From: Psammoneis japonica
Lineage: Eukaryota
Length of the DNA: 64,000 nucleotides
NCBI GenBank assembly: GCA_008632985.1
Contig: QPGO01000052.1
Location: 310,001 to 374,000, forward strand
Direction of reading: 5' to 3'
Positions within the stretch are counted from its first letter, which is position 1. Every line of letters begins with the position of its first letter. Shown piece after piece: positions 1 through 27,486 of this stretch. Under the pieces are notes generated by a model, which was not told the origin of the DNA, searched no databases, and saw nothing but the letters and a program-made list of their open reading frames with translations. The translations under genes and the position numbers were made by a program.

Positions 1-1075
1 TGTCACCAAGAGAGCTGTTCTGCAGAGGAAGAGGGAAACAGGCAACAACATTTTGCAAGAACTGTTTTGTGTCAATGGCCGGGTGGGATGGGGCAGCATC
101 TGGACTTTGACGGAGCATTTGGTGGACAAAGCTTGAGCACAGAGAGCTGTCCACTCAAGCTCCACAAGTGGCACATTTCAAAGGTGACACCAATGTGTTC
201 ATGCATCAACATGCCTCAAGCTGCAAGTCACACAAAAAACCACCACCAACCTTTCTCAACCAACCACGATCACAGACAGAACAGGTCAAGAGGTTCGAAA
301 CAAGAGTGATTACTTCATTGACTCTCTTCTTGTTTCATGCATTCAAGAGCTTGTTCTTGTCCTTCTCAAACGTTTGTTGTGCATTGTTGTCTCTTTTAAT
401 TCAAGTGCAAAGAGGAGCCACTTTTCTTGTTTCTGTCTCTTGAGATGTTGTTGGTTGTTGAGTGATGCAATTTTTGTTGCTTGTCACATTTTTGGAAATG
501 TTGGCAAACCCGATCACTGCTTGATTGTCGACCCATTTGCTGTTTTGAGTCTCCGTGGCATAAAATGCCACAATTCCAGAGCCCTCAATTGTTTCATCAA
601 ACGCAGTGCTTTGAAACACGTCCAACATCAACTCGACTCAGTTGAAATCCCAGTTTGTGGGCGATGAAAAATCACGAATGTCAAACAAATGACTGCTTTC
701 GACATCAAGATCCCCGAGTTCAATCCAAATGTGACGGCGCGCCTCACAGCTTGTGGCCATGACACACACAAGCATGCCTCATTGTTGTCATCGCGTGCAC
801 TCGCATCGAAAATGCTGATGGATCAAAGTTCAGGAAAAGGATGGAGTGCAAATTCATTTGTGCACTCACCAGAGTGGCATTGGCGCAATGACACCCACGG
901 CAGAAGCGATCAAAAATCCTTGTTCATCATTGACATTTCTGCATTGCTCAGAATTTGAAATCTGACCACCACCGTTGAGCATTTAGCTTTCTTTGTGTCG
1001 AAGTGGAAACGACACTTGACGATTTGCACCAACCATTTAGCTTTCTTTGTGTCGAAGTGGAAATGACACTCAACG
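1..1075. mobile_element. Decayed repeat/transposon-like DNA, TpA-depleted block 1 (runs off the left edge)
   Basis: Almost no TA (the few left are TTA/TAA) and excess TG/CA. Composition matches the copia-containing blocks. No recognisable intact ORF; family not identified. Confidence 0.5.
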
Positions 1076-1112
1076 ATTTACACTAACCATTTAGCTTACT
1101 TTGGCTCGAAGT
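980..1112 (+). repeat. 54-bp tandem repeat, ~2.5 copies
   Basis: Unit catttagctttctttgtgtcgaagtggaaa... starts at 980, 1034 and 1088. Confidence 0.9.
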
Positions 1113-1448
1113 CAGACAATGAGATTGGGTTATGGGCTTGTCGTTAACCAGCCACGAGCATGAAATCTTTACCAAAAATCTGATTCAGCGTTCTCCCCCA
1201 ATAAATTTTCTGGAGCGTTACATTTTTCTACGCGCGGTTCTACGGGGCGTGAGCACTCCCAACTGGGAGGTCTGTATGTGGTACGGAAGAGAGGAGTGGG
1301 GCGTGAGACTCCTCCTGCAGTGGGCCGGCGCGAAAAGAAATGGAGAATTCGGGTCGGTGGACAGACGACCCACGACTAACGGAAGTAAATAAATGAAAAC
1401 CAAAAACATCGTCGAGAGTTGTAGAGTTGTTGCATCTCGAAGCGCAAC

Positions 1449-2514
1449 ATGTCAGCTTCGGGTGCTGTCGTAGAACCAAATGCCGGTGCTGCTGTCGTGC
1501 CAGCTGCCGGAACGGTAGTCGAGCCCGCTGACGCTGCTGTTGCACCATCACCGGCCGAAAACATGTTTGCGGCCATTGTGCCCACTCTGCCGGTGAACCA
1601 TCAAACTGCCATTGCTTGGTTGGCTAAGCAGAACCAACTTGATTTCGAAATTTACCAAACCGAGCTAGCCCGCATCAAGGACCAAGCAAAGGACCAAGCA
1701 AAGGACCTCGCAAAAGAAGCGTTTGCTGAGATGAGGCAGAGCAAGGCTGATCTCAGTCGTCGACTGAAAATCGCACCAAGGAGATCATTGCGCTTCTTAC
1801 ATCCTCGAAAGGAGAAGAGGAGACGGTGCCTCACCTGGCGGACGATACGGAGGAAGAGGCACAAGAGGCAATGGAAACTCCGAGGAGTAAGTAAATGAAA
1901 AGGCACATCAAATACATGGCATATACTTCTTTTCATCATGTAACTCACATATGTATATCGTGTGTCATTCCTACATCACAGAATCTTTTCTCTCTCGCGT
2001 TTCGGGTGCCGTCTCTTATGTTTTCACTCCTTGCAAGAAGGAGACTGATTCTCTAGGGTCTGATATTTCTTCGGACGGTAGCGAGTATTCGGTTGATGAA
2101 CTCGATTCTATCACGGACTCCGATGCAGCATCCTATGTTTTCACTCCTTGTAAAAGGAAGGCTGATTCTCTAGGGTCTGGTATTTCTTCGGACGGTAGCG
2201 AGTATTCGGTTGATGAACTCGATTCTATCACGGACTCCGATGCAGCATCCTATGTTTTCACTCCTTGTAAAAGGAAGGCTGATTCTCTAGGGTCTGATAT
2301 TTCTTCGGACGGTAGCGAGTATTCGGTTGATGAACTCGATTCTATCACGGACTCCGATGCAGCATCCTATGTTTTCACTCCTTGTAAAAGGAAGGCTGAT
2401 TCTCTAGGGTCTGAAATTTCTTCGGACGGTAGCGAGTATTCGGTTGATGACCTCGATTCTATCACGGACTCCGATGCAGCGGGTGACGATTCTGCCAACA
2501 ATTCGAATCTTTAG
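1449..2514 (+). CDS. Putative orphan gene (Ala/Pro-rich N-terminus, coiled segment, acidic Ser-rich repeat C-terminus), possibly frameshifted near 1760
   Basis: ORF 1449-1898 plus ORF 1951-2514. Candidate intron gtaagt ~1887 to cacag ~1981. After ~1760 the +1 frame (STENRTKEIIALLTSSKGEEETV) looks more protein-like. Confidence 0.35.
2014..2480 (+). repeat. 117-bp (39-aa) tandem repeat x4, near-identical
   Basis: Units start at 2014, 2131, 2248 and 2365, encoding SYVFTPCKRKADSLGSDISSDGSEYSVDELDSITDSDAA. Confidence 0.95.
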
Positions 2515-4622
2515 TATTTGTTGTCATATGGAGTGGTGATTCATTCGCAGAGAAACATGTCGCTGCACTCATCGCAAGCAGCCCTGAAACTTCATTTTCT
2601 GTACTCACTTGGTGCCGTACTTTTTCAACTTGTCGATGGTCCTCGCACCGTCAACATGGTCGGTCCGCCAGTAGTAGTGTAGGGTAGAAAAAGTTGCTAT
2701 TCTAGTAACCAGATTGTATCAGGGAAAAACAGTGTTGCTTACATAGGATACATTGTGATAGCACTGTGCCGGTACATTAGATTAAGATGGAATAGTTCAT
2801 TCCGCGGTTTTTGTTCGGAAACCCACACGGTAAGTTGCGTTGCGCTTCACAGGATGAAAAACGCTACGCTTGAATTGCTGCACAGGCTTCCACATAGATC
2901 ATTCACAAAATTAAGTGTATTCCATACAGCGAACTGAATTGACCTTACTCACTCGATACTCGCTACAGATAACGCCACATCGTCGTCCTTATCCCAGAGA
3001 AAGAAAAGCGGCGTCGATAGAGCTCTGCTTTTTCCACTTACTCCTCATGGCAGAGAATATATCATTGTGATATAGTTGAAATAATACGCAACACTCAATG
3101 GGTCTGCAGATTTCACATGCTCTGCAGCATTTGCTTCCTCGAGAGCCAAACCCTTCCATTCTCGACTCTTGGCGAAGTTTACCAATAATGTTGGCGTCAG
3201 CAGTCACAATGTATTGACGTCAAAGTCTTTCGGGTCGGAGCATACAGACACGGTCAATGCTGAACATCCCTGCTTGCAAGCGGGAGCAAGCGTACCGATT
3301 CGAACTATCTATAGAAATCGAGTATAGCTACAACTTTCCGACTTTCCGCTGCCTTTCAACAACAACGGACCTTCTCTGCTGCAGCACATTCTTCTTCTTA
3401 CCACCGTGGAAGAGTATTATCTCCCGCCATACTACAGGAAAATTGAACATCCAGAGCCTTGTCAAAAAAAGGCTTGCTCTTCCTTTCAATCGATTCGGTG
3501 TGCTCGGACATCGTTCTGACACCTGCATTAGTCAACCCTTGCTTACTGATTCGAGACATGTTGCGCAGAAGAGTGCAATGAGTTGGCACAGAAGTCTCTC
3601 ACCATCTCAGTGCTCGACCCAACACAGAAACTCTAAATCTGATGACGTCGGGAGGGTCGTTTAGGTCATGGTGCTGTAGACAGCGGGAAATCCAGCCCAA
3701 TGATCGCTGGGCCTCCCCTGAATTGTGCCATCCGCGCCCACGGTTCCCATCTCATTTCGAAAAATGCCACACGTCTATCTTGTAACGACAACAAGCGTAG
3801 GTTGGAAGCAATCGTCAAGGGAAATAGCTTTTCACGAGCGCTCTTGTTGATGTGCCAACACTGCCCCTTCTCCCGTAAGAGGCTTTCTTGTTTCACGCCG
3901 TCATCTGACCAAGTCAACTTGCACTGTAGTCTCACTTTTGCAATGTGCACCAAGCTTGGCTGCGCAGACCCGGCGATAACAATTCGAAACATAGGACAGC
4001 AATTGCACCGTTGTTTGTTCAACTTTGCCTTGCAACATGCCGCACACGGTGGGTCATCAACTGCATGTCCTCCAAGCGGCGATTTCCACTGGCTGGAGAT
4101 TTTATCTTTTCGCTCCAGAGCAACCGACTCGTCTCTTCTTAAAAATGTGCTGTCTGCTGTCTAGCTAGAAGAATCCGTAATGGGCACTGAAGCTCCCGCA
4201 TCATTTTCTTTTAAAGACCTTTGTGCGAACTGCCTCATTTAAGACCAGATGTTTCGAATGTCGACACAAACGCTGCTCGGTGGTGGTGTGATGCGTGATT
4301 GTCGGAGGGATTGAGCTCGAATTATCGCAAAAGCACGATCAACGTTCATTCCGCGCTTTTTCTGCTGTTTCACCAGACGCCAACTGGCCCAGCTCTGAGC
4401 AACAGTTTCTTTTGCAGCCGAACGACGAATTTGTAAGATCGAAGAATCGGCAGGTGCGTGTGCAGTGTGTTGTCGGAGACAGCTGGCTTGAAACGAATAA
4501 GACGTCATGGTCGATTTTCGGGCTGGGGGTGATGCGATGTGATGTGCGGCCTTCGAGCGTCCGTCAGGCGGCGTGGAGCGTCCGACCTGCCTCCGTAAAA
4601 TCCGGGTGTCTTTCTGCTGAGG

Positions 4623-4663
4623 TGTGCGCATTTTGTGCGCATTCTGTGCGCATTTTGTGCGCA
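4623..4663 (+). repeat. 11-bp tandem repeat (tgtgcgcatty) x~4
   Basis: Read directly; sits at the left edge of TpA-depleted block 2. Confidence 0.85.
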
Positions 4664-5590
4664 GGCCTTGCACGCGGCATTTTGATGTGTTTCAGGACAA
4701 ACCTGTTGTCATGCGTGGGACTCCTTCTTCAGCTGGAAGACAACAGTTCTTAAATGCAGACAATTTGTGACAGACACACTCATTTGTTCAGCTTGTTGCG
4801 ATCAGCAGCTGGCTGGGCTTGGCCTCGCAGCCTTGCTGCCTGGGTGGCCGCAGCTGGCAGCTGTGCACTTCCCCCTGGGTGTCTCTTGCCTTGAAGCTCT
4901 TCACAAGCTTTTTTTTGACCAAGCTCTTCACAATGTTTCCTGCTTTTGGTGCTCATCTTCTGTGCTGCAGAGTGCGGTGCTGCCGTGCTCTTCACCTTTC
5001 AGAGGGCGACGGGCTCCAGTCCCAGGCGGGACTTTTTGTGACATTTGGCCAGCAGAATTCTACGTGCGAGCTCCGCATTACAAGAATTCAATTGATGGAC
5101 ATTTTTGTCTTCAACATCAAATGAATGACCAAGTTTGTGGCGCAATTGTGGCCATTGCCGCTTGATGTTTTCGGCAATCTGCCTGCCCTGCGCCACTCTC
5201 AAGACATTTGCAAATGGCGCAGAAGAAAAAAATGTCAAAAGTTGTTGGACGGATCGCTCAATGAGTGCACCACAAAATGACACAAAATTTCAGAAAAGTC
5301 ACGTGCCTTTCCACGTGCACAAAATGCGGTGCGATCCAAAGAACCATCGATGTCACAGCTCAGCAGCACGAGGCCCCACCTGGAGCTGGAGCACGTCGGG
5401 CTGCCGGCAGCCCTCGTGCAGTTGGGGGCTGGAGACGCAGAGACCAGCCTCACGCTGAAGAGCAGCACAGCCAAGCTTGTGGGGCCAATGCTTTCTGTCT
5501 TTGTTCAGTCTCATGTGGCACCTCTTTCCCAAATGCCGTGCTTGGTGACGTCCTTGGCAAGTGCAAATTTTTTGGCACCTGGGTTGCCAG

Positions 5591-5783
5591 TGACAGAATG
5601 CCAAAGGTGAGAGGTGACAGAGGCACAAAGACTCCCTAAAGTGCCAGGACTGTGACAACATGAGTGCTGGCAGATGAGGGAGTGAGAAGCAGATCTCAGA
5701 GAGATCTGCTCGTCCATCTGGATGGTCCGGTCATCATCCATGTGCAGTCTGTCCATCACACGATGTGTGTGGGCAGGCTGACA
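5591..5783 (-). mobile_element. 193-bp LTR (3' LTR of a copia-family element), copy A
   Basis: TG...CA ends (tgacag...ctgaca). On the minus strand it is preceded by the polypurine tract aggggatgg. Homologous to 10434-10626. Confidence 0.85.
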
Positions 5784-8270
5784 CCATCCCCTGATCTGCA
5801 ACATCTCAACACAGAGAGTGGTGCAGATCAAAACAAAGAACAGGGATGATGCAAACAGACTGGACAACAAAACACAAAGTGTCCAGGCTCAACTCGTAAT
5901 TGCAAAGGAACCACACAGCACAGGGCAATGGCATCTCCAAAAAGTCTCCAAAGGCAGCTGGGCACATGTGCTGATCCAACGGAGTCTTCGACAAAAAACA
6001 TCAAAGGCAGTTTCCAACAAATCTTGAAGACAAATTGAGTCTTGCACCAAAGAAATGAATTTGTCAATCAACAAGCAATCGATTGCAGAAAGACATTCTG
6101 GCGAGTCACACTGTCGCCAAATCTCATCGGAAGGGATGGGGCCAGAAAATGCAAACCCACCATGGCGGACAGTGCGGCAATGAAGAAGCAACAGCAATCC
6201 ACCTGACAAAACAACACTTCTGCCACCGGATGTGTTGCCCCTGAAGAACATGTTGGACAAACAAAATGCATCGTGTGGTCGCTCAACATCGGAAGAACAG
6301 TGACGCATCGCAGGTGAGCATCGCAAGGCCTTCAAATGATGGTCGTCAAGTGAGGTTTCTTGATTGAATGTGACATTCTCAACAGCCTGATGTGCTTCCT
6401 CTGTGCCATGGGAATCCCTCCCCTGATCTAAAAATGTGGGGTCATTGTCGGGGACAGTCGACAGGTCAGGACCACCAGGAAAAACACCACTCGACACCAC
6501 AGCGGTCTTGACAGCGAAGGAAGAAGGCAACATGCTGGAAGAGTTGGTGTGATTGTCAATCGTGCACAGTTCTTCTGCACAATGTTGCTCCCTCCTTTGA
6601 CAAGAAAATGAAGGATCATCATCAGCGATGGTGGACAGGTCCGGAGTGCCATGAAAAGCACAAATGGACGCGACAACGGTCCTGACAACGGAAGAAAGAG
6701 ACGGCACAGCAGAAGGTGGTGAGACTCGGTGGCCCTCTTTCACAACAACCCCGCTTCTGTTGGTCTTGTTCGGACAATGGAAGGAATGGCGGCGTCGCAC
6801 ATCCAAAATTAACAACGGCCGAGCCAAAAATCTGAGGACGAAGTAACCTGACAACCACCAACAGAGCTCTGGCTGCGTCCACAGGTGTCACTCGCATCAT
6901 GTGACGGTGCCACAGAGGCAGCAAACAGCTCATGGGTGACCTTGGTGACACAGCATGATCCATCCAATGGATTCAAGCAAGCCCCATTGTGTGAAACAAC
7001 AGGATTGCCAGACACAAAAAACTTTGGGGTCTTGAGCAGGCAAGCGTGGAGGTCGGCGGGAAATGCCACCAATCCGGCAGACAATGCAAGTGAACCGGTG
7101 CCAACAATTGCAGATGGCTCACTCGCAGGAACCACAACAGACACAGGAGACTTGACATCTGGCGCAGTGGCATTCATGGGATCAATCCGAGCACCCGTTG
7201 AGATTGCACCTTCATCTTGAGTCACATCTGCATCATCTTGGCTGGAGGACTTGGTGGCGGCGTCCATCTTGGAATCTTCAAATGCATGATTAGTCAAAGA
7301 CAAGGCCAGAGGTGAGGAAAATGGCAAAGAGGCTTTCTCACATCCGTCATGGTCACCGGAAGGTGAAGGGTCTGGATGGCGTTGATCCTTTGCATGAGGA
7401 GGTCCGTCCATGCCCTCATCGAAGTGTGCACTCGTGTCCACCTTGATCTGAGAGTTTTCAGGATCCTGCCACAGGACGTGCTTGTTGGCATCAGATGAAC
7501 AACCAAGGAAAATGCCCTTCTTGGGGACGGGGCGCAACTTGGAGTGACGGGAACCGGGTTCTCAAACCCAAACACGAGAACCAATTTCAATCTCCCCAGT
7601 GGCCTTGATGTCAGGAGTCATGTCCTGATCCACAGACACAACAGGTGCAGTGGACTCTCCAGAAGACAATTTGGCAGGCGCAATGGATGATGCAGACCCC
7701 GATGAGGAGCCACACGACACATCAACAAGATCATGAATGCTTGCAGAGGGAAGAGGTGCACTCATTGTTGGAAGAGGCACAAGAGCTCCTTGTTTTGCAT
7801 GTGGCACACAATTGGATGGAAGATGCATGTCAGCACCTCCAGGATGCATGGTTGCATTCGCATGGAGTGGCGCAGTTGCTGATGAAGGACCACGCCCAGC
7901 CGTGACGGAATTAGAGACGCCAATCAACAAGGAATTCATGCTCGTCGCTGGATGAGGTAGATGTTCTTGTGGAGGTTGACACTGGGGTGACGCGTTCCAG
8001 CCCCAGGTGGGAGCTCGTAGCACTGACGTGTGACACCAACAATTTTTGTCATCCGTCGCATGTTTCGCACGCAGATTTCTGCATGTGACATTTAAAAAAA
8101 ATTGTCCAGACTCGCTGTTTTGCGAAGCCCCAGATGTTTTACATGACGAATTTATAGAAACAACAATGCGCCAGTTGCATTCTTCAATGTCTGAAGAATG
8201 TAACTGGCCAAGTAAAAAATGATGTGCTTCAATCATGGGCAAGTTTGTGCGTTCGCAAAATTGCTTCATT
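5591..8270 (-). mobile_element. Degenerate, internally deleted Ty1/copia derivative with an integrase C-terminal fragment (~7410-7585)
   Basis: GSRVWV*EPGSRHSKLRPVPKKGIFLGCSS...VLWQDPENSQIKV..AHFDEGM resembles the copia post-integrase motif (GCRVWVR..KL....KGIFLGY...YDP....K....FDEG). Has 3' LTR and PPT. The upstream boundary is approximate. Confidence 0.65.
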
Positions 8271-10626: not shown

Positions 10627-10805
10627 CCCTCCCCTGATCTGTGATGTCTCAACACAGAGAGCAGTGCAGATCAAACCAAAGAACAGGGATGATGTGAGGA
10701 AAAAGCAGAGAGACCAGACACAGGACACGAGAAGTGTCCATGCCCAATGCGCAATCAAACAAAGGGGCAATGCGCAGCAGGAAGGCCACCGCAGAAGAAA
10801 AAGTC

Positions 10806-15651: not shown

Positions 15652-17084
15652 TCAGCTTTGAGACGGGAATGCCCGTTCTACGTCAGGGGACACCACCACC
15701 GTCTTCTTCACATCGCCAAGCGGAACATAGGTCCCTTCCTCGGTGTCAATAGAAACTGCCTGCTGCACAAAGCCACAGGATAGACCTTCTGAAACATCCA
15801 TTCGAATCTGATGATAAACACGATATTGTAAGGAATGAGTCAGCGAGCACCAAAAAACATCAACGAGCTAACAAGAAGCCTCACCTCTGGAAATCCGTCC
15901 CTTCCACCCATTACTAACACAGCTTTACCACTCTTAAAGACAACGATTCTTCCCAATTTTCCAGCCTTTGCAGTATTCAAAGAGTCATCGTATGCCTTCA
16001 ACTCGGAAGCGAACGCGGATAAGGATGAAGCGGTCGGCGCGGCGGCAGGGGTGCTTGTTACAGGATCCACTATGATTGGCTGCTCTGCGCTGTTGGAATT
16101 GCTCGCTATGATATCCGGGGTTGGTGTCGCTGTCGTTTCAGATGCCAGGTTGCTGTCGTTGAATGCAAGGGATGGCAGTCGCGTTGGAAACTGCCACAAG
16201 GTCCATTCATCTTGTCGCGGCTGCGCCGTAAAGATTGAACCGCTAGACCTACTTGGTTTCTTCTGTAATTGTTGATCCTTGGCTTCGATTCCATTTCCTG
16301 CCATTTGGCAAGCATACATTGCCTGACCTTGCTTCGGTCCTCCTTGTATGGGAAAGGGTAGCTGCGTTGGTGGTGGCACATTTAAAGAAGAAACAGCTCG
16401 ACGACTTTGTTCGTGCGATTCTTCCAAACTAGAATCCGAGTCATATGTATCAATAATAGATAAGAGGGTTGAGGACATTTTGGGTGCATCCCGTTCCGCG
16501 TCAGAATTTGTTGCAGCACGTGTCGGCGAACCCGCTTCTTGCTGCACCTTTGAAGCAATTGCAGAGGCTGGTGCCTTGGAGCCAATGGCCACATCAAGCT
16601 CTCCGACAATGATTTCCACTTGACCTCGCTGTGCTCCTCCTTTTGATTTCATCGACACACCTGCTGATACGACTGTATCCGCAGTGGAGGCGCTCCTGGC
16701 CCCAGCACTCTGGCTCGCTTGTGCCTTTCTACTTGCTGCTTGCTTGGTTGTCGCCTGCTCAGGCTGATTTCCTGTGAAGTAAACTGCACCGCGCGGTAAA
16801 GAAACGGGAGGTCGTCTTCCACCTCGTCCCCTCCCTCTTGCGCTTCCAGATGCTTGTGCCTTTCCTCGGTTGCCTGTACCGCGACCACCACTGCCTCGTC
16901 TGCCTCCCCTACCTCGAGAAGGCCCTCGAGAAGGCCCTCGAGTCTCAGAAGACGCTGACGAAGTCGACGCGACATTTGATCCTGCAACAGCTGAAGCCTT
17001 CGATTCTGTAGTGACTCCTGCCTTGATCTTTTTCGGTGGTTTACGAGGCTTGAACTTGCCCGCTTGAGATGGAGGAGGCACCAT
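15652..17084 (-). CDS. POLR3D: RNA polymerase III subunit RPC4-like (2 exons)
   Basis: N-terminal KFKPRKP. C-terminal LWQFPTRLP...GKLGRIVVFKSGKAVLVMG, intron, then RMDVSEGLSCGFVQQAVSID...LGDVKKTVVVSPDVE. Confidence 0.85.
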
Positions 17085-20000
17085 GGTCGGTGTTACCGGT
17101 ATTTACACAGGCGCGCCTGGTGTTGGTTGCCCGTGTTCTGGGTTCTGTGTCAAACGCACAGGTGCACAGACGTAGATTGGACGCTTCGCTGCTGGTAGCT
17201 GCGCTGAACGGCTGTGTCCCTCGTTTTGTCCACAGCAGACACAAGTGCACGTGAACAAAGAGTGAAGATAGAACATTAAATGCCACAATCATTGACAATG
17301 TCATGTTTGTCAATCTTATGGAGAAGGACATCCACATTGCTCTTGGGCTTCATTTGGTGGATGTTCATCACCGGCAAACCAGCACAACTTGGTGACATCC
17401 ATGCAAGTGTCGCAAAATGTCTCGCTGGCATCATCTTCGTCGCACGCCTCTCTGATCAACTTGACGACGGTGCTTGCAGCCCACAAGTGGTCAGGTGCAA
17501 CAGATGGAGAGTGCACGGTGTCCATCATAATCAGCAGCAACACACTTTGTCTTGCACTTGCTGCCTTGTTTGTGCTTTGTCGCCCAGCTCTTGACAAGCT
17601 GTTGAAGCTGAGGATGTGGCTTGGCAGTGTTTTGCTTCATCCATTGTGGTCACATGAGCCCTGGCTGGCCAGCCATTTTCCTCCAGATCTTCGTCATTGT
17701 CAAAATTGAAGAACTCCAAGAATCAGTCAGAGGATGCAGATGAGACCCCCAGCTCCCAGCTTTGTGCAACAACGCAACAGCTGCGCACACAAGCTCCAGG
17801 GCAGGAGGACAGTTGAGAGCCTGGTCGTCAACAACTTTGACCACAGAGACAAATGGGTTCATTTGGTTCTGCCCAGAGTGACAACAAGAAAGGGACCTTG
17901 TCTCAGGAAGAAGCTTGACAGCAAGAAAACAAAGGGCGTGTCATTGGCAATGAATGAGCTCCTTTGTTGCTTCAGGCACACACAAAAGAGGGCTCTAAGA
18001 AGGCTCTCTGGCTGCTCCTGGTGCTGCAAATGACTGTGCAAGGCACTGCAACTAAAGACCACAATCAGCAAACATGTGTTTTCAACAATGTGGTGACAAC
18101 CTGGGTTCTCATCATGTGACAGTCCTTGTCAGGCACAAAAACAAAGGGGTTGAGTTGTTTTTGCACACAGCTCCTGGTTTGAAGGCAAGCGATCATTTGC
18201 ACAAAAAGCACAAGATCCAAAAATCATCTCTCAACAGAAAAGAAGTGACACATCATGTTTGCAGATGAAGGCAAACAATTGAAAGACAAAAGTGACAATC
18301 GTCAAAATGTTTAAAAACAGCGACCTTGAAGCAGAAAAATGGCAAGTCAATTGGCCAGGAGTCAATGGCATCTCAAACCAAAAATGACCAACCCAGTGCA
18401 AAATTGGCATGTTTTGTTTTTGTTGTCAGAGCAAATTTTATGAAGCCCCAAAGCCTTTGAATGTCATTGGGTGCCATTTTGCACACAAAGACCACTTGCA
18501 AATTTGGTCATGTTGAAAGTGGTCAACCCCAACCCCCTGACTTCATCTCACTCATCTGTCTCCAGTCTGGTTGGGGGATGCATCAGGGCAGGGGGAGACA
18601 CAGACAGATGGAAGTTTTGTTGCAATTGGTCCATCCATTGGCTGGCATTGGCTTGGTGCAACAGGTCCTTGATGGCAGACCTTGCTCACCAGGATCAGGA
18701 GGACCATCTGAAGAAGCCACAGTTGTCTCTTTGTTTCAAGTGCCATGCTGAACTTTCACATGATGAGCCATGCTGCAAAAATTTGGGCTTTTCCACAGAA
18801 AAAAAAGCCACCAACGCACACTCTCATGGCTGTCCATCTCATGGCTGTCAAAACAGCTCTGACAGCAAAAGAGCAGCTTTGTGCAGTGCCGCGGGGGAGG
18901 TGAGGGATGAGAGTGAATTCACACACCAGCAAAACTTTCTGGAGCATTGGAGAAAAGCTTGCAGCACCCAACTGGGACATTTCATTGTTGTTCCATTGCT
19001 TCACAGAAGGTGCTGCAGACTTTCCCTGCATCTGAAAGAGAGAGGGGCTGGGGTGGCAGAAGGTGCTTCTCTGCATGTGCAAATCTCCAGATGGTGCATT
19101 TGCTTGTGCTGCTGCTCTTGGTTGTGTGGACAAGCCAAAAAACTGTGAGAGCATGCTTGCTCCTTGTTTTCAAACCAAAACAGCACACACACAACAGCAC
19201 AGATGGGGTGTGTGCCCCTGTTCTTGCTCATTGGTTGTCATGGCTGTTGCAGCAATGAGCAGAGCTTGCTCCTCTCCCACAGCCCAAGATTGTGGCTGCT
19301 GCTGTGGCAATGAAGTGAACAATGGAGAGGACCTTGTGTGGTTTCTGCCAGCGGCACAGTGCTGGAGCCATTGGCAGTCATTGCAAGGCTGCAGCTGCCC
19401 TGTCAATGCCAGCCTCACACCCACCTCAGCATGCCAGAGCCCCTGCAGCAAAACAAAAACTCAGACACAATTTGCAGCCCTGTTGCACCTTTTCCCAGCA
19501 ACACCAGTGCTGAAACAAGAAAGAACAGTTGCACTCAGGAGAGGGCACAAAAGCAGCAGCACAAGACCTGGGAGAGAAAGTTGGCTTCCTGGGAACGGTC
19601 TTGCATTCCTTGCAAAAGACAGACTGGGCTTCACAGCTTTGGGCGCTGGAATGAAAAGAAAGAGTTTGCCACTTAGCATGGTGAGCTTGACATGCTGGCA
19701 ACAAAAAAAGGGATGTTTGAGCAGCACATGTTTGCCACAAGGTGTCAGTGTGCCAGTTGTTTTCACTGAAATTTGTTTGTCACAATGAAATGAGGGCACG
19801 CCATCAGCAGAAATTGTCAAATTGGTCTTGTGGGACCCAGCAAAACACTGTCTGAGAAGAGGGGCATCATCACAAGGAGGCACGCAGAAACACAGGTGGG
19901 GCTGAGGGTGAGCAGCTGATGTTGAACAAGCAGAAACCTTGTTGCACTTTCTCCCACAATGGCAAGATTGCTCTGATTGAAAACTTGACACTCACCTTGA

Positions 20001-22139
20001 AAACCCCCAGCTCACAGAGAGGCCAGAGCAGAAAGAGCAAGCAACACAAACAGGCAAGATGCTGGGGGCTCAGCAAGAGGAGTTGGTCTTGCAGCAAGAT
20101 GTCAGGAAGAAAGAAACAATCAGTGCACCCAATGGCTTGCTGATTTGATGATTGCTGTCAACCTTTCACTGTGACACCAACCCAAAGCCAAGCTCAGAGG
20201 ATGACTTGCAAAAAGCAACAATGCCAGAGCACACATGTTGAGCATGGCATGGCAAACATGAGCAACAATGTTGAAGGAGTGTCTTTCCACTGCTGTGCTC
20301 TGAGTTGAGCCATTGGGGACCAGCACAATGAGAGGCTGAGCAATCTTTTTGCAAATCTGTCTGTGATCACTCACCTTGGCCACAAAAAGGCCCCTGTAAG
20401 ACAAGCAGAGACATCACAGCAGCACTGCTTCCCAGGTCCATCACATTTGAATCCTTTGCAGCAATCTTGTGGACACAAAATGGTGCAAGGAGTTAGAGGC
20501 AAAAGTGCCAGTCATCTGAGGAACAGGGCTTGGTGTCTCGTTGGCTGCTGGCTGTGGCTGGGAGGGGTTGGTTCCACCCAAAACACAGCCACTCACCTTG
20601 TCTCTCAAACTTTTCATCTGCTGGTCATGTGTTTGCACTGCAGGGTGTGAGAGAGAGAACACAGTGGGTTGGTGTGACACTCATTGGCTGTTTTCCAGTC
20701 TTGCCCCCCCCATTTGGTGCTGCCAAGCTGAGCTGGCTCACCCCTCTGCAGGCCTCTTGTTTTCCTCTGTTGTTGGTGTGGGCTTCAATCAGCAGCAGCT
20801 GCTCCTGCATGGAGCAAATGTGTGGTGCCTTTGTCATTGAAATGCCAAACTGAGAAAAGCAGAAAAGAGCAGTTGTCAAAGAGCTTGCTGCTCAATGACT
20901 TGATTTTGCACTTTTTTGAATGTGGGAATGCAAAAACATTTGGAGCATTGGAAAATTTCATGATGTCTACAAAAACTCTGATGCAATGAACTGCAGCCAC
21001 ACAAATTTGTGTTTGCTGCACTGCAGATTGCACAGAACTTGAGAATGTGCAGCCACAAATCATTCAGCAGCATTCTGCATGCTTTCTGCCTGCAGCACAA
21101 AGATGTGCACATGCCTGCACTGTCCATCTGTCTGCTTCTGGCAACCATGCACAAAAACAATCACTTCAATTGTCCAGCTGCACAGGCAGCTCCTCTCCAC
21201 AAACTGTGTGGGCCATGCACCAGCAGGGTTTGTGCAGAATTTGACAATGACAGCATTCCATTTTAACAGTGACAACAAGTGGAAATGTGCATGGATTTCC
21301 AGCACAAATTTGATGGCAAGTCAAAGATGGAATCCATCCATCAACATGTCAGTTGCTGCAAGAAGAACAAGCACTCATCTTTCATCTCAACCAACTGGCG
21401 TGTGCTGCAACACACAGCATCAACAATGGCAATGTCAGAAGCAACTGATTCTTCAGCATTGCATCCACCAATGCAGGAGCACATCTCAAATGAAGAGACA
21501 TGCCACCATCACCTCAGCTGGGCCAAGTGCAGCAGCAATGAATCAGGAGAGTGTCAGCCTGCACATTTGCCACTGGCAAGCACAAGCAGACCAGCTTGAG
21601 GTGCAGCTGTGTTGAAATCAGCAGCCAACAGCAAGTGACATGTCCAAGCATCAGATCCTGCACCAGATCCTCCACCAAATCAAGAAAGCAGGAAAAGAAA
21701 AGCTTCCTCTGTTCAGCAGGTGCAGCGCTGTCTTTGTTGTGGTTTGAGCTGCAAAGATTTGCACCAAGAAAACCACAGGGCAAAACCCAAAACAAGGGGA
21801 GCACTGCACTGTGCCAGCTGAGGACAGGGTGCCACACTGGGAAGTGTCAAATGGCTGCAGCACTGGAGACAATCTCAGAGCAGCAGACTCCAATGCTGCT
21901 GCTGCAAAGCAAAAATGGAAGAGGGTCCAATCAGACAACAACTTGTTGGCACCAACCCTGAGTTTCCAACTTTGCAATGGTGGGTGAGGACTCAGCAAGG
22001 ATGAAACAAGAAACCCACAGTTTTTAGAAACTCATGCTGTCAGCATCATCAGCCATTGTCTCTCACTGTGGTTGGAGCAGATTGCAGTCATCACTGCTGA
22101 TGCTGAGTGCACCATGGCTCCAATGCCACTCTCAATTGC

Positions 22140-23130
22140 CACATGCTTCAATGTCAACAACCAATCACAGCCTGCATCAATGCTGCAAATCATGACACCA
22201 CCAGCCAGAACACCACCTGCCACAGCAATGCTGCCAGCCACAATGCCACCAAACACAATGCTGCAAACTGTGAGGCTGACAGCCACTCTGCCTGCAATGA
22301 TGTTCCAGTGCTGCCAACTGAAGTGCAGCCCATGTGAGCATGGTTGATCACAGAGCCACCAGCTGCAACATCAGCACCAGCCACCCACAAAGCTGCCAGC
22401 CACAATGCCACAAAACATGACTCCGCCAACTGCGAGGCTGCCTGCACTCACCAGCACACTGATGGTGGTGCCACCTGCAATGCTTTGATGCCACCAACCA
22501 AAACACAGCCTGTGCCAACACCGCCAACCACAGTGCCACCAGCCACAATGCCACAAAACATGACACCACCAGCTGCAAGAAGGCTGCCTGCACTTGCTGC
22601 AAATTGTGGCACCACCTGCCATGATGTTTTCCAATGCCACACCAGCCAAAATGAAGCCTGCGCCAATGCCGCTGGTCATGGCACCACACACACAGCACCA
22701 CCAACCACAATGCTGCTGAACACTTGACATGATGCCGCCAATCTCAAGGCTGCCTGCACTTGCTGCTGACCACACCCCACCAGCACTGATGCTCCAACAC
22801 TGCCAACTGAAACACAGATTGCACCAATGCCGCCGATGGTGGCGCCACAGATCACAGTGCCGCATGACAGAGACAGAGGGTCTGCCAGCACAATCTGACA
22901 TGCTGGGACATGATGACAACGTGGCACTGGTTGGAAAGGAACTGAGCAATGGATCTCAGGGAGATCTGCTCAGCTGTCCAGGTCTGGCCATCATCCACAG
23001 ATCCAGTGTGCCAACTCCGCCAACTGCAACGTTGCCAGCCATGACACTGCAAGCTGCAATGCTGCCAAATGCTGGACATGGCACCACTGGCTGCAAGGCC
23101 ATGCATGCTTGCTGCTGACCACAGCACCAC
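22140..23130. repeat. Degenerate low-complexity tandem repeats (ccagccacaatgccac.../ggctgcctgcact...)
   Basis: Motifs recur near 22233, 22396, 22539 and 22746. Confidence 0.7.
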
Positions 23131-26100
23131 CTGTGCCATCTGCATCAACATCAGTTTGGCAGAGTGTGGCAGCAGTGGCAAAACGAAACAACGGCACTGC
23201 AAAGGGTGCTTTTTTCCTCTGTCAGAAAGAGTTGGAGCCATTGCTTTCCTGCAACCAGGGGCTCCATGCTCTCAATCTGTCAAGCATGAGCCAAAATTGA
23301 AATGCGTGCATTGTGAGAATGGAGTGCAGGTGCCAGCAAAATCCAGGGGAGGGGCTTTTGTCCATTTTTCTAGATGTTCTCTTGCCTCTCTCTTTTGGTG
23401 GACACACTTTTCAGAGAAAAACGCAGCATGTGACACATTGGCATTTTTTTGGGAAAAGGTTTGTCAACAACACCTGGTGTTGGTTGTTGCTGCCACCACT
23501 GTTGTGCCTTGTTGCAGCCAACTGAATCATGGCATGTGAGTCATGTGTGCCGATGACTCACCTCAGTTGTGTCACAGACATGCACCCAGTGAACAGACAT
23601 TGGGACACCCAGACAGCAGAGGACATCCTCTGCTCACTTTGTTCTTTCCAACTGGCACCATGTCATCATCACTCTCCTGGCAAACACATTGGGTCCTTGT
23701 CTGCCAGGTTGTGAATGCCATCACACCATTTCTCTGTCATCGGTGAGTGCCCGTGTGAGCCGGAGTCTGTGCCACGGAGCCCCACTTTTGTCAAGAAAAC
23801 ACCCTGTCTCCATCTCACTGATTTTTCCCACCATCTGTGCCAACAGGACCATTGCAGAGCACATGCCAGCACTCCATTGAGCATTTCTCTAACCATGATC
23901 AAATTGCCACCCAAAGCTGTCAAGCTGAAAATGACAGAGCACATTGTCCTCAAATTTGAGCCCAGTGCCAAACACAAAGATGCCCACAGCACTCACCTGA
24001 AAACAGCATTCATTCTGATGCTGTTCTGGATCCATTGGTCATTCTGGACGTTGCACACACCCCAATCTTGATGAAGACGCAATCACAACCTTGTGATGCC
24101 AGCTCATTGAAGAGGTCATCTCATGCCCCAGGCATCAAGAACTGCAGCAAACCTTCTGAGCACGGCACCTGTCATTGATCAAGCTGCCCTCCAAGTTCAT
24201 GCCAAAGGATGACATGAGACCTGAATGAATCAACCAACACTTCTGAGAAAAATGACCAAAGCCATCAATGCTGTCCAAGACACTGTCTTGTTCATCAAGG
24301 TTGGTGCCTGCCATCTGCCTCCACATCCGCCCAGTGGAGGACAGGCTCAGGCATGAAAACTGGGACCATGTCAATGCTGCTCCCTCCAAGGCAGCCACCA
24401 TCAAGACCCCATCTGTTGACGCCAATCCACCTGCCAACAACACACCTGCAGGAACAGCTGAAAAATTTGTCAGGGCACTTGCCAGCACACCCCAGGCCCC
24501 AAACTCTGTGAAAAAGCCAAGTGCCAGCATTGATTGTGCCTTCAAGAAGATGCTGACAAGGGCAAAACTGCCTCCACATCCAAATCCAGAAGATCCACCC
24601 TTGTGTTCATGTTCAATCCCACTGTGGTTTGCCACCTGACATCAAAACCAGATCTGAAAATGCAAACAAAAAGGACTGGCCACTTGCTCAAGTGCCCCCC
24701 AGTGCCCCACAGCACTGGCCACATGCACCACATTGATGGCAGTGACAGCATCATTCTGACAGATGGTGTCCTGTGTGTGAACACCATTGAATGGGATGCA
24801 AAAGCTTTTGTGTGCCAATCCATTGTCTGCATGATGATGCGTCATTTCAAGGAATCCACTCATGGCAAACTGTGCTCACTGAAGTCACCATGGCCCATGG
24901 AGCACACATCCATCCACTGTGGTGCTTTGTCAAAGACCATGATGACTGGGGAATTTGCCACTTGCAATGAGATGACCAATGATCTGCCACTTTGCATGCT
25001 CACCCAGCTCAACCAAATAAAAACTGCAGTCTGCCAGTGCTTGAAGGAAAAAGAAACATTTCCTCTCCCACTCGAAGTTCCCAGACACAAGCACCCAACA
25101 ATGCTCTGCAGATGGACACTTGGCACTGAAGATGACCATCTTTGATTGCCAGCTGACATGGCAAAAACACCCTGTGAGATGATCAAATGCACCTGAAGAA
25201 GAACAACCTGATGCTCTTGAGCCACCATTTGGAATTCCAAGATTTTCCACAGCCAAACATGTTGTTGAGGAGGATGCAAATGCCACTTTGGACAATCCTG
25301 GCATCTCAGACATTGCTCAATGTCATTCACCTCCAATGAGTTGTGAGCAAGAAGGTGCACCCTTCCCTGCAGAACCAGAGAAGCAACTGCACAGTGCCAC
25401 AGTTTCACTCCACATGTGCTGACACATTTGCTGCTGTGATTGCATGCACTGTAAAATGCTGTCCCAGCAATTGGACCTGAGTGTGCATCTCCAGTGTCAA
25501 ACCAAAATCCCCTGGTGCAGCCACCCTCTTCTCCACACTCCACACCATGAGAAACAAGCTCATGCACTGGGCACATGCATCACATCTGTCAACAAGCACA
25601 AAGAATTTGCCATTGAAGACACCAAGAAAGCACTGTTGCAACAAGTCTTTCAGGAAGAAATTCAAACTTTTGAGACAACCTTTGCCCCTGAATGCCATCT
25701 GGGCTCCAGACAGCTGCAATGTGTGATGGATGAACACCAATGCTTTGCACCCGAGGCCAACTCACTGGATGAACACATGCCAGAGATCTCCCCAGTTGAG
25801 GCACACAAGACAGCATCTGTCATCTGCCCTGATGATGACTTCTTGGAAGCAGCAATCCCTGCTGATGTCTTCTGTGAACACCCCAATGCAATGTCATGCA
25901 AAGACATGGCTGACAAAGAAGCAGAGCTTGACCATTTTTTTCATCCACAACAGGGTCACAACAGCTCTCCACTTGGCTGGAATGGGAGGCAGGTGAACAT
26001 GAACAACTCAACCAGCTCAACACTCTCAGCATGTGTGTCCCCCCTCAACCTCATCCCAAAGGTGCCACCACAATGCAACCCCGCTGGCACTGTCAAATGA

Positions 26101-26317
26101 AGACAACCAGAGAATGGTGTTCAAGGCAATGTGGCAACAGATCCCAAAAAACAGCACCCATCCTCTGTGAACATGCCTCAATGTGCACTCATCCTGTGTG
26201 GAACAGGCAATGCAATGCATGCTGATCACCCTCAGCACTGGCATGTGCTGTTGGATCTGTGGCTGTGATGCACAAGACACTGCAAGCACCTGTTCCCCAC
26301 ATCCAAATCACCCAGGT

Positions 26318-26672
26318 TTTGTTGTGGCTGCATGCCATGAATGCCATCAGAAACTTTTTGGAAAGACTCCAGACCCAACCCGCATCCTGCCACTCCTCCA
26401 TGCTCTCCAAGGACACCCTGAAAGCAGCATGCTGTGGGAAAAGCACACCAGCTTGATGCTTGCTGATGCCAAGCTCAAGCGCCAGTGCATGTGCTCCATT
26501 GTCTGCAAGGGAACCAAAGTGCTGCTGCTTCAACAAGTTGGCAATTTTGCACTTGCAACCCCAAAGAAGACATTGCCATTGAGATCTGTGATCACATTGG
26601 AAAATGCCTCCAAATGGAGAATGAATCAACCCCACCATTCAAGCACCTTGGCCCATGCACCAGTTTTGATGG
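26318..26672 (+). pseudogene. Ty1/copia reverse transcriptase fragment, possibly preceded by a gag/zinc-knuckle remnant
   Basis: KLFGKTPDPTRILPLLHALQGHPESSMLWEKH...KGTKVLLLQQVGNFALA...EDIAIEICDHIGK.LQ..NESTPPFKHLG matches diatom copia RT (HALQGHPESG.LWE; LLRQVDDFA). Confidence 0.85.
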
Positions 26673-27486
26673 ACTGGGCGCAGCTTGCGATGTCGTGTGC
26701 TTGCATGCCCAAAAGGTGTGCACCAGCTGTCTGGCCACCACAAGTGTGCATTGCGTGTAGACCTCTTGTTTGCTCTCTTCCCTGCCTCCTCCTTTTCCTG
26801 CTCCTTTTGTCATTGAGAGGGGTTGCTGCTGCATTTGTCCCGAAACTGCCGGCGCGGCGCTTTGAACAAGGCTTTTTGCTGCTGCGCTCATTTTTGAGTG
26901 CAAAAGAAGCTGGTTGTGTTCACAACAGGGCTTGTTTGCAAAAGCAAGAACATCAGGTGAACATCCACAGGTGCCACAATCTGGGCAGCATGACAGATGA
27001 TGCAATCATTGACACCCCTCCAAAGCGCAGCAGGGCACTCGCAAACTTCTGTGATGTGTGCCGGACCTCTTTGGCACACAAGGAGTGCAAAGTGAGCAAG
27101 AGTTTGTGTGCAAGCCTCCTCTGACAAGTCTGTCAAAACACAATTTTCAAACAGTGGTCAAAGCCGTGTTTTACTTCATCCTCTGCTTCAGGCACCGTAC
27201 AGCACTGCTGTGGCCTGTGGTTGTTACAAGAATGACCGTCGTCCGTCGTGCGTGTCTGGCGGTCGCGCGTTCTTCGGCGATCGAGCGAGCGCGAGCGGAG
27301 CGAGCGAGCGAGGTCAGTGAAAAACTTGTCTGGCTGTCGTCCGTAATCTTGAAATGCGAGTTTCGCGAGGTTGGAGGTGTCCGTTTTTTTTTTTGCTTTC
27401 CTTTTTCAAAACACAGTTGTTCATCGTTACGGCACTCCAAATAACATCAACAAGCCATCCGTTGATACAAACACACAAATAGCAAT

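Follow-up and report, generated by a model that had tools for sequence, protein, structure and literature searches.

In a 64-kb stretch of the genome of the diatom Psammoneis japonica (contig QPGO01000052.1, positions 310,001 to 374,000), which is referred to here as the window, three blocks have lost nearly all of their TA dinucleotides, and the sequences found in their place point, with very high probability, to a directional mutation of TA to TG or CA in transposon DNA. An earlier note on this DNA had described these blocks as nearly free of TA, rich in TG and CA, and surrounded by DNA in which TA is used freely, and the counts bear out each of these statements. The three blocks, with their observed/expected (o/e) dinucleotide ratios, are as follows.

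Positions 1 to 1075, no strand assigned: TA-depleted block 1, with 5 TA (o/e 0.06); CG o/e 0.57, CA 1.76 and TG 1.61.
Positions 4650 to 11750, minus strand: TA-depleted block 2, with 46 TA (o/e 0.11); CG o/e 0.61, CA 1.63 and TG 1.59.
Positions 17280 to 27170, plus strand: TA- and CpG-depleted block 3, with 17 TA (o/e 0.03); CG o/e 0.13, CA 1.76 and TG 2.11.

At the ratio of the flanks (TA o/e 0.55-0.59 in the three stretches between and around the blocks), approximately 47, 243 and 354 TA dinucleotides would be expected in blocks 1, 2 and 3, respectively, against the 5, 46 and 17 observed (Poisson P for the deficit, 1e-14, 4e-54 and 9e-126); the count for block 3 is close to the approximately 20 previously estimated by eye. 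The o/e ratios of TG and CA in the blocks were 1.6-2.1, and the summed fraction of YR steps was steady at 0.242-0.250. An unchanged total with TG and CA increased is what conversion of TA, rather than its deletion, would be expected to give. Most edges of the blocks are abrupt, with the spacing of TA shifting within tens of bases at approximately 1040-1080, 11617-11773, 17277-17317 and 27172; block 2 begins less crisply on its left side, at approximately 4250-4750. Inspection of the edges revealed neither clear LTR termini nor target-site duplications. Loss of CpG was strong in block 3 and moderate in blocks 1 and 2. Block 1 continues past the left end of the window.

Remnants of copia elements lie inside blocks 2 and 3, as had been noted earlier, with integrase and RNase H in block 2 and reverse transcriptase (RT) in block 3. 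The following features were recognized.

Positions 7397 to 7669, minus strand: C-terminal remnant of a copia integrase (tblastn to P0003 residues 396-484, 42% identity).
Positions 10806 to 11771, minus strand: copia ORF of 321 amino acids with RNase H and the C-terminus of pol, the best-preserved remnant (RNase H match at 10815-11636).
Positions 25300 to 26703, plus strand: frameshifted remnant of a copia RT (tblastn to P0003 residues 479-964, 23-44% identity, in four pieces).
Positions 5591 to 5851, minus strand: copy 1 of an LTR-like repeat, which pairs with 10434-10694 over 261 bp at 88.1% identity.
Positions 10434 to 10694, minus strand: copy 2 of the LTR-like repeat, downstream of the RNase H ORF and approximately 120 bp from its end.

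At E<=0.001, the RNase H ORF matched 21,410 homologues, with identities of 53-57% for the best of them. Block 2 is a nest of degenerate pieces of copia-type LTR retrotransposons that is highly repeated in the genome; its summed contig depth in a second DNA run, X1, was as high as 72,568, compared with approximately 60 for unique DNA. When 128 ORFs from the blocks were scanned against Pfam, the sole notable match was that of the integrase remnant to SH3_retrovirus, which was weak (E 8e-5) and under the Pfam cut-off, and approximately 14 further ORFs gave scattered weak matches (E 0.0009-0.08), all below the cut-offs and taken as chance. The five ORFs of block 1 gave no Pfam match, with no recognizable coding remnant in this block, and most of block 3 was without a recognizable protein by Pfam on ORFs and by tblastn.

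The direction of the change is evident from the tyrosine codons (TAY) of these remnants. None of the 20 consensus Tyr residues in the integrase, RNase H and RT remnants was kept, whereas 229 of the 347 other consensus residues in the same remnants were (Fisher P=1.3e-9). Twelve of the Tyr codons had become TG-type (10 Cys and 2 Trp), six had become CA-type (5 His and 1 Gln), and two had become Phe. The loss was complete in each remnant: none of eight Tyr was retained in the RNase H ORF (5 Cys, 2 His, 1 Phe), which kept 121 of its 145 non-Tyr consensus residues, none of eight in the RT remnant (4 Cys, 3 His, 1 Phe), and none of four in the integrase remnant. With 18 of the 20 lost Tyr codons TG- or CA-type and the flanks spared, the earlier proposal is upheld, in which TA on either strand of transposon-derived DNA has mutated to TG and CA while neighbouring host DNA has escaped this loss. 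A purine preceded five of the six CA outcomes and five of the 12 TG outcomes, in keeping with the context preference described below, but these numbers are too small to count. In the LTR-like repeat pair, 20 of the 31 mismatched positions form ten doublets with TG in one copy and CA in the other, which are independent outcomes at the same sites. The remaining mismatches consist of three TA versus TG/CA, three CG versus TG/CA, three other transitions and two transversions.

The composition itself, and nothing more, would be accounted for if the elements had been natively free of TA or if the sequence were an artefact of assembly or consensus, an explanation that is refuted in practice. Tyr codons require TA, and no consensus Tyr is left in reading frames that are themselves broken. 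Intact relatives are not TA-poor: full-length copia homologues contain 2.5-4.5% Tyr, a normal content, and related DNA copies have TA o/e values of up to 0.9. X1 (depth approximately 60) also argues against an artefact; it was compared as contigs and may not be fully independent of the assembly of the window. The X1 contigs span 12237-28000 almost continuously and do not restore TA en masse; the individual contigs depart from the window at no more than 3, 8, 1, 3 and 1 letters. Since these contigs, as distinct from raw reads, match the window without TA, a consensus artefact is unlikely. Block 3 is single-copy in X1 (depth approximately 60-65), with 12 letters that differ from the window; among the 11 listed single-copy differences, ten are C>T or G>A in the direction from the window to X1, and eight are CpG transitions. 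Two differences between the window and X1 are of the TA/CA kind, at 23344 and 26994, and because ten of the 11 listed differences run C>T or G>A, both are most simply explained as C>T in the X1 lineage. No polarised TA>TG/CA event was found among the differences between the window and X1.

The nucleotide spectrum was obtained from a related copia family rather than from that of the window itself; 46 non-redundant metagenome copies of the related family were compared with their own majority consensus. The scan that retrieved them was seeded by a 5-sequence alignment, a 17-sequence alignment being too diverse as a seed; an earlier metagenome scan with the mutated protein of the window gave 123 pattern matches, none of which was confirmed. 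The loss of TA per copy ranged from 2 to 80%, with TG and CA outcomes about equal. In the nine most affected copies, A>G occurred at 225 of 688 TpA sites (0.327) compared with 0.016-0.056 after A, C or G, and T>C occurred at TpA at 0.246 compared with 0.041-0.068 elsewhere, these site counts being pooled over related copies and hence not independent. The 15 least affected copies showed no excess of A>G at TpA (0.037). The preference for a 5' T that had been predicted for A>G changes is thus strong in this family. At the 412 changed TA sites of the nine most affected copies, 385 outcomes were single transitions (220 TG and 165 CA), and 27 were classed as other.

Two rival explanations may be considered here. 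The first is that repair in silent chromatin involves error-prone synthesis of the Pol-eta type (WA>WG). The WA motif of Pol-eta covers A>G after T, and so includes the change seen here. However, A>G after A was 0.050 in heavily hit and 0.030 in spared copies, compared with 0.327 and 0.037 after T, and transversions at TA were rare, as judged from the 27 other outcomes against 385 single transitions. Therefore, this mechanism, which the earlier note had listed, fits poorly, and we consider it very improbable. The second is a species-wide, untargeted bias of TA>TG/CA, under which only dead transposons, being unconstrained, reach a TA-free equilibrium while selection keeps TA elsewhere. Flanking DNA may indeed be constrained in a compact genome, and the TA o/e of host DNA is already just 0.57. 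Against this bias, the RNase H remnant retains most of its other residues but none of its Tyr, and loss of TA in the related family is not clock-like: copies of equal background divergence (approximately 5-7%) span 4% to 61% TA loss, and the overall correlation of TA loss with background divergence was weak (rho 0.41). In addition, mutation accumulation in another diatom, P. tricornutum, identified CG, CC and TG as mutagenic contexts, with TA not mentioned in the available part of that text (PMC6604790). An untargeted bias is therefore improbable.

Neither CpG deamination nor RIP is able to account for the loss of TA, as the earlier note had argued. Deamination of 5-methylcytosine also makes TpG and CpA and is also at work here, as indicated by the CG o/e of 0.13 in block 3, but it is unable to remove TA. 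Furthermore, losses of TA and CpG were uncorrelated in the related family (rho 0.04), where CpG C>T was approximately 0.12 in the most and least affected groups alike. Methyl-CpG deamination was thus rejected as the cause of TA loss, although it accounts for the loss of CpG from block 3. RIP of fungi resembles the present case in its dense transitions confined to transposon DNA, its sharp edges and its copy-specific load. In contrast, RIP is a C>T process, mostly CpA>TpA, by which GC is lowered and both TA and stop codons arise, whereas the change in the blocks removes TA, is unable to generate stops and raises GC slightly (to 0.50-0.51). The density of TAA plus TAG is 2.6-8.2 per kb in the blocks compared with 33.5 per kb in host DNA, and RIP was rejected as the cause. 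RIP also depends on duplication and on a DNMT4/RID enzyme. Of the repeat-targeted mutator proposed in the earlier note, the mutator is supported, while its targeting of repeats would be a supposition, block 3 being single-copy in X1 today.

The TAs that survive in the blocks are not a random sample of contexts. The residual TAs comprise 2 RTAY, 26 YTAR, 24 RTAR and 16 YTAY, compared with 499, 313, 483 and 436, respectively, in the flanks (OR 20.7, P=4.7e-9), and the tetranucleotide classes most enriched in the blocks are NTGY and RCAN. In the related copia family, the values for the base following the changed A on the edited strand were 0.41 for C, 0.34 for T, 0.17 for G and 0.13 for A. On the edited strand, the preferred context is 5'-(W)TAY-3', although A>G at TAY and T>C at RTA on the opposite strand give the same resulting sequence. 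RTAY, which is a good context on both strands, is erased first, and YTAR survives longest.

The earlier note had regarded a process of this kind as undescribed, but integrated viral DNA of the chlorarachniophyte Bigelowiella natans has already been reported to undergo TpA>TpG/CpA hypermutation (bioRxiv 10.64898/2026.01.13.699255). As presented in the main text of that 2026 preprint, so far the only report, the hypermutation affects NCLDV and virophage inserts and occurs de novo: of the 302 new mutations in mutation-accumulation lines, two integrated viral regions received 231, among which all 230 A>G/T>C changes were on TpA. The same text gives a de novo rate approximately 1000 times background, with episodic rather than constitutive activity. 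It also describes a long-term footprint, namely clusters low in TpA and high in CpA+TpG in which RT and DDE domains are over-represented, and names an ADAT-like adenine deaminase as the proposed agent. In both cases the changes are nearly only A>G/T>C at TpA (here, in 18 of 20 lost Tyr and, for the related family, in 385 of 412 sites), TpA depletion with CpA/TpG enrichment is clustered (here, in three blocks of 1-10 kb), foreign or mobile DNA is hit and host DNA spared (here, as seen in one window), and activity is uneven, between mutation-accumulation lines in B. natans and, by analogy, between copies of the related family here (2-80% TA loss at similar background divergence). The likeness to B. 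natans is supported, and the diatom case would be the same kind of process; that a targeted process of this kind acted here is probable. There are differences as well. The host is a rhizarian in B. natans and, as the host genes of the window indicate, a diatom here; the viral inserts keep much TpA (Rho 0.45, in the main text of the preprint), whereas the copia DNA of the window is near zero (0.03-0.11); and events were seen de novo in B. natans, whereas the diatom process is known from its footprint alone. The main text of the preprint is silent on context beyond the dinucleotide, compared with the TAY preference and the RTAY>YTAR order found here, and does not discuss CpG, the loss of which was compared with that of TA here. 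Our literature searches, which included the accessible portions of PMC2806351, PMC8147415, PMC9998398 and PMC6604790, found no report of TA loss in diatom transposons.

It is also conceivable, though quite unlikely, that the RNA or cDNA of the retrotransposon was edited before integration, by an ADAR/ADAT- or APOBEC-like route, so that copies arrived already mutated. This would account for the sharp edges of the blocks, and the load does differ greatly between copies of similar background divergence. However, editing of sense RNA or of a single cDNA strand gives one kind of outcome, so that the presence of both kinds in each heavily hit copy, in similar numbers (220 versus 165) and randomly interspersed in all 11 copies tested, counts against it; strand-coordinated runs of TG or CA were sought in these 11 copies and none was found (P 0.09-0.91). 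ADAR acts on dsRNA, changes A to G on one strand and favours a 3' G. Here a 3' G was a poor context (0.17, compared with 0.41 for C), the opposite of this preference, and ADAR-type RNA hyper-editing was rejected on both grounds. APOBEC3 and ADAR do resemble the present process as deaminase-type hypermutation of mobile elements that becomes fixed in genomes, but APOBEC converts C to U on one cDNA strand, whereas both strands are changed here and a 3' pyrimidine is favoured. Moreover, in the account given by the preprint's main text, the B. natans mutations arose in culture, in long-integrated single-copy DNA (bioRxiv 10.64898/2026.01.13.699255). Action on integrated DNA is the more plausible reading for the diatom.

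As to the chemistry, deamination of adenine is our tentative choice, and the enzyme would most likely be an adenine deaminase that reads T-A-Y. A TadA-like deaminase, as suggested in the earlier note, is the best fit among the mechanisms proposed there, with the enzyme itself being our inference. TadA and ADAT2-ADAT3 carry out A-to-I chemistry, and in their natural tRNA target A34 follows U33, with C next in tRNA-Arg(ACG). This U33-A34-C35 would correspond to T-A-C, the best context here. In contrast, amphioxus BjADAT2, which according to the portion of the report consulted is the sole natural ADAT2 with demonstrated activity on A in DNA, prefers GAA rather than TA for adenine when expressed in E. 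coli, and also prefers hairpin loops (PMC10354150).

Alternatively, the T in 5'-RTA-3' could be modified, for instance if a JBP/TET-type enzyme oxidised it to 5-hydroxymethyl- or 5-formyl-uracil, and then read or repaired as C. This thymine chemistry, which we consider unlikely, predicts the same footprint, TA becoming CA on one strand and TG on the opposite one, and it draws some support from 5hmU in dinoflagellates and base J in kinetoplastids, both of which occur at T preceding A. With a footprint that is symmetric between the strands, and with TAY reading as RTA on the complement, the damaged base is not assignable from sequence alone. The nearly exclusive transitions (385 of 412), however, suit deamination at least as well, and the B. 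natans authors, in the main text of their preprint, put forward adenine deamination as their preferred proposal (bioRxiv 10.64898/2026.01.13.699255).

Returning to hypermutation of TpA in dead copia DNA, we hold with good confidence to the following description of the process. The three blocks would be dead retrotransposon DNA of the diatom genome, copia-type where recognizable, in which hypermutation at the DNA level would have changed TpA to TpG or CpA through A>G on either strand. The direction of the change, its specificity for TpA, the use of both strands, the confinement to transposon DNA and the context rule are established by the data. The process ends at the junction with host DNA and takes individual sites on the two strands, with no coordinated runs on either, while some copies are struck heavily and others spared. 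Restriction to transposons is what is seen in one 64-kb window and in environmental contigs such as L056. Decay of methyl-CpG is a separate process that additionally eroded block 3, and a role in genome defence may be envisaged. Among 80 loci, an LTR-like pair was sought in those of at least 4 kb and found in L001 only, which is not hypermutated (TA o/e 0.72).

The saturated footprint on diatom copia DNA and on related environmental elements suggests a process of wide occurrence among marine protists, one that acts on transposons as well as viruses and can run to completion. The TAY context, the action on both strands without runs and the independence from CpG narrow the mechanistic options. 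We further suggest, again tentatively, that diatoms and chlorarachniophytes may share an old, SAR-wide or wider, DNA-editing immune system, guided by chromatin or RNA, that targets the adenine of 5'-TAY-3' for deamination on either strand of mobile DNA once this is integrated, can run to saturation with practically every TA of a transposon lost, and leaves genomes full of long pseudo-ORFs, which are then annotated by gene callers. If this is true, the TAY rule and the pattern of all or little loss from copy to copy would provide a handle on the enzyme by phylogenetic profiling. Because TAA and TAG are removed and no stop is ever created, proteins are killed by missense (Tyr to Cys or His), and the affected DNA is full of long spurious ORFs in all frames, which are Tyr-poor and Cys/His-rich and contaminate gene catalogues. 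Among 150 cluster representatives of the homologues, five were Tyr-free and Cys/His-rich.

Composition, measured in sliding 500-bp windows and as block totals, confirmed the observation of the earlier note that the window contains blocks poor in TA and rich in TG and CA. The TA observed/expected (o/e) ratio was 0.55-0.59 in three stretches of host DNA, that is, the window DNA between and beside the blocks, and far fewer TA dinucleotides were present in each block than expected at the host ratio.

TA-depleted blocks of the window
1-1075, block 1: 5 TA (o/e 0.06), ~47 expected, Poisson P = 1e-14; CpG o/e 0.57
4650-11750, block 2: 46 TA (o/e 0.11), ~243 expected, P = 4e-54; CpG o/e 0.61
17280-27170, block 3: 17 TA (o/e 0.03), ~354 expected, P = 9e-126; CpG o/e 0.13

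Thus, CpG was strongly depleted in block 3 and moderately in blocks 1 and 2. TG and CA were found at o/e 1.6-2.1 in the blocks, and the pyrimidine-purine steps summed to 0.242-0.250, an unchanged total as predicted by conversion of TA (and CG) into TG/CA. The block boundaries were sharp to tens of bases, except for the left boundary of block 2. The right edge of block 1 (980-1100) contains a 54-bp tandem duplication, with surviving TAs in TTAG, which belongs to the resistant YTAR contexts. Block 3 contains an internal tandem repeat in degenerate form (22196-22766, ~67% identity, offset ~160 bp), and the TG/CA excess there is the highest of the window (o/e 2.4-2.5).

When the best ORF, 10806-11771 on the minus strand, was searched against 1.8 billion representative proteins, 21,410 homologues were found at E <= 0.001. 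These are Pol proteins of the copia type, and identity reached 53-57% for the best of them. The remnants were placed by tblastn with 11 full-length homologues, and the remainder of block 3 and the whole of block 1 had no Pfam match.

Copia remnants and repeat in the blocks
5591-5851 and 10434-10694: 261-bp LTR-like repeat, the second copy directly downstream of the RNase H remnant
7397-7669, minus strand: copia integrase C-terminus
10815-11636, minus strand: copia RNase H
25300-26703, plus strand: copia reverse transcriptase (RT)

Judged from protein matches, the host is a diatom: a phosphoglucomutase fragment in the host DNA has 65-75% identity to many named diatoms (P. tricornutum, 69%) and ~52% to other ochrophytes, and the named relatives of the host fucokinase gene are diatoms only (best-match identity, 75% for phosphoglucomutase and 52% for fucokinase). 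At these identities, the organism is neither B. natans nor P. tricornutum. Several repeats were also found outside the blocks. ORF 1891-2514, with a weak Doublecortin-domain match, contains a tandem repeat at 2014-2480 (117-bp period, 93-97% identity), and another at 34314-35172 (144-bp period, 80-87% identity) codes for a PT-repeat ORF on the minus strand (34215-35039). A host segment is present as a diverged tandem duplication (57084-59212 and 59934-62252, 68-73% identity), within which a C2-domain ORF is located (60674-61759).

Tyrosine is encoded by TAY codons only. At consensus positions, defined by agreement of half or more of the aligned homologues on one residue, non-tyrosine residues were kept at 121/145 positions in the RNase H remnant, 27/46 in the integrase remnant and 81/156 in the RT remnant (229/347 in all), whereas tyrosine was kept at 0/8, 0/4 and 0/8, respectively (0/20; Fisher P = 1.3e-9). 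The residues now present at these 20 positions are Cys (10), His (5), Trp (2), Phe (2) and Gln (1), giving 12 TG-type and six CA-type outcomes on the coding strand. The direction that the earlier note had proposed, TpA to TpG/CpA, was therefore borne out. When intact relatives were checked for TpA poverty, the full-length homologues were found to carry 2.5-4.5% tyrosine. These comparisons indicate that the elements in the blocks had TA-bearing ancestors and that TA loss took both of the routes open to it, to TG and to CA. Between the copies of the LTR-like repeat, 31 of 261 positions are mismatched: 20 of these form ten TG/CA doublets, three are TA versus TG/CA, three are CG versus TG/CA, and the remainder are three other transitions and two transversions. 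Such doublets are the pattern expected if the same ancestral TA (or CG) was resolved independently in each copy.

The depletion is unlikely to be an artefact of the window's assembly, judged from contigs of X1, a DNA run that may be related to the window's source: X1 contains 94% of sampled block 3 words, and its contigs across 12237-28000 differ from the window by 3, 8, 1, 3 and 1 letters. Ten of the 11 single-copy differences listed for block 3 are C>T or G>A in the direction from the window to X1; CpG is the site of seven of these ten, and one further CpG-related difference (19678) is in the opposite direction. Since the differences are mostly of this kind, versus two differences in the adjoining 5 kb of host DNA, methyl-CpG decay in block 3 is suggested to be fast and ongoing. 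Block 2 belongs to a high-copy family in X1 (summed depth up to 72,568; 4,317 contigs), in which 369 of 453 variable places are transitions. That depth was reached at 8001-8667, versus ~60 for unique DNA; TA (o/e ~0.25) and CpG (~0.8) are both higher there than in the rest of block 2, and this segment is possibly an element or LTR of younger age and very high abundance.

Related copia elements were examined in environmental metagenomes, in the best 80 of 441 confirmed loci from a second scan, for which whole-locus TA o/e ranged from 0.12 to 0.91. Fifty-two of the 80 matched a reference stretch from one locus (L015) at >=78% identity over >=700 bp; after exclusion of six near-identical duplicates (L028, L034, L041, L042, L056 and L071), 46 copies were aligned, with a majority consensus of 2,121 columns and 99 TA sites. 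Because the copies are related, sites pooled across them do not count as independent. Between 2 and 80% of the TA sites of a copy had become TG or CA, with TG and CA about equal and the reverse change rare. Nine heavily hit copies (TA loss >=0.40) were compared with 15 spared copies (<=0.13), leaving out the middle 22.

Frequencies of change in heavily hit and spared copies
A>G after T: 225/688 = 0.327 heavily hit; 0.037 spared
A>G after A, C and G: 0.050, 0.056 and 0.016 heavily hit; 0.030, 0.028 and 0.010 spared
T>C before A: 0.246 heavily hit; 0.043 spared
T>C before C, G and T: 0.041-0.068 heavily hit; 0.031-0.061 spared
C>T at CpG: 0.123 heavily hit; 0.115 spared
Transversions: 0.0235 heavily hit; 0.0187 spared

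The 5'-T preference of A>G was thus evident in the related family, and the conversion is directional and specific to TpA; at the TA sites of the heavily hit copies, a single transition was found in 385/688 and another change in 27. Pol-eta-type synthesis, which the earlier note had offered as an option, fits poorly, because AA was not raised and transversions were few. RNA-level editing or editing of one-strand cDNA also fits poorly, because every copy has both TG and CA outcomes. These outcomes were randomly interspersed in 11/11 copies tested, and therefore no long one-strand runs of either were found; the conversion acts site by site on both strands. Converted sites in the aligned part of one locus (L077) were clustered 3' (runs test P = 0.003), unlike in the other 10 copies tested, which might be explained by recombination in this copy or by targeting of only part of it.

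TA loss was unrelated to CpG loss in the related family (rho 0.04), the conversion being separate from CpG decay, and correlated only weakly with background divergence (rho 0.41). The load varies from copy to copy: L045 has a background of 0.051 and a TA loss of 0.52, and L012 has 0.069 and 0.04. Load does not accumulate in a clock-like way, which makes a general neutral TA>TG/CA bias a poor fit. Furthermore, the conversion is confined to mobile DNA in the window and in contig L056, in which the element is TA-depleted and the 4 kb downstream of it are spared. Downstream of another hypermutated environmental copia (L079, 1201-2553), TA (0.03-0.15) and CpG (0.07-0.24) are both low and TG/CA is ~1.8-2.1, the same double depletion as in block 3.

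The surviving TAs revealed a context rule.

TAs by context, surviving in blocks and present in flanks
RTAY: 2 in blocks; 499 in flanks
YTAR: 26 in blocks; 313 in flanks
RTAR: 24 in blocks; 483 in flanks
YTAY: 16 in blocks; 436 in flanks

For YTAR versus RTAY among the 68 survivors, compared with the flanks, the odds ratio was 20.7 (P = 4.7e-9), and NTGY and its complement RCAN were the most enriched product classes in the blocks. The related family reproduced this independently found rule, RTAY being lost first and YTAR last. On the edited strand, the strongest effect was that of the base after A (C 0.41, T 0.34, G 0.17, A 0.13), so that TAY is favoured, and the base two before A had a small effect (T 0.36, A 0.33, G 0.24, C 0.21); the top contexts were TTAC (0.55) and ATAC (0.51).

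We infer that an enzyme is responsible, the simplest candidate being an adenine deaminase, because inosine is read as G. TadA acts on the anticodon-loop context U33-A34-C35, which matches the T-A-C context of TA loss. However, according to the accessible part of PMC10354150, the only natural ADAT2 for which deamination of adenine in DNA has been demonstrated favours GAA and hairpin loops, which counts against a simple ADAT assignment. Alternatively, but less probably, the sequence context may reflect chemistry on the thymine of RTA instead of on adenine.

A process of this kind has very recently been described in mutation-accumulation lines of Bigelowiella natans (bioRxiv 10.64898/2026.01.13.699255), and the diatom case joins it. 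In that work, 302 new nuclear mutations were recorded, 231 of them within two integrated viral regions, one of NCLDV and one of virophage origin. A>G and T>C changes made up 230 of these 231, every one of them on TpA, at a rate of ~6e-7 and in some lines only. The genome contains 124 clusters depleted of TpA and enriched in CpA+TpG, RT and DDE domains are enriched among low-TpA ORFs, and the authors proposed an ADAT2-like deaminase. The mutator reading of the earlier note is therefore supported in kind, but its description as undescribed is not. Diatoms are a second host lineage for TpA>TpG/CpA hypermutation, with retrotransposon targets in contrast to the integrated viral targets of B. natans; the footprint is saturated, and the context rule is new. 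The main text of that preprint makes no mention of diatoms, CpG, copia or flanking context, and nothing on TA loss was found in the accessible portions of diatom transposon, methylation and mutation-rate papers searched by term, or of the wider literature.

The process destroys TAA and TAG and is unable to make a stop codon, which accounts for the abundance of long ORFs in every one of the six frames of the blocks; TAA+TAG on both strands amount to 2.6-8.2 per kb in the blocks versus 33.5 per kb in host DNA. Five of 150 homologue representatives were tyrosine-free and rich in Cys and His, sharing the Y>C/H pattern in the alignment. The predicted proteins P0028, P0037, P0088, P0090 and P0092, cluster representatives from environmental contigs, have 0-1 tyrosine and raised Cys and His. 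All five are gene calls on hypermutated copia DNA, and products of this sort probably pollute protein catalogues.
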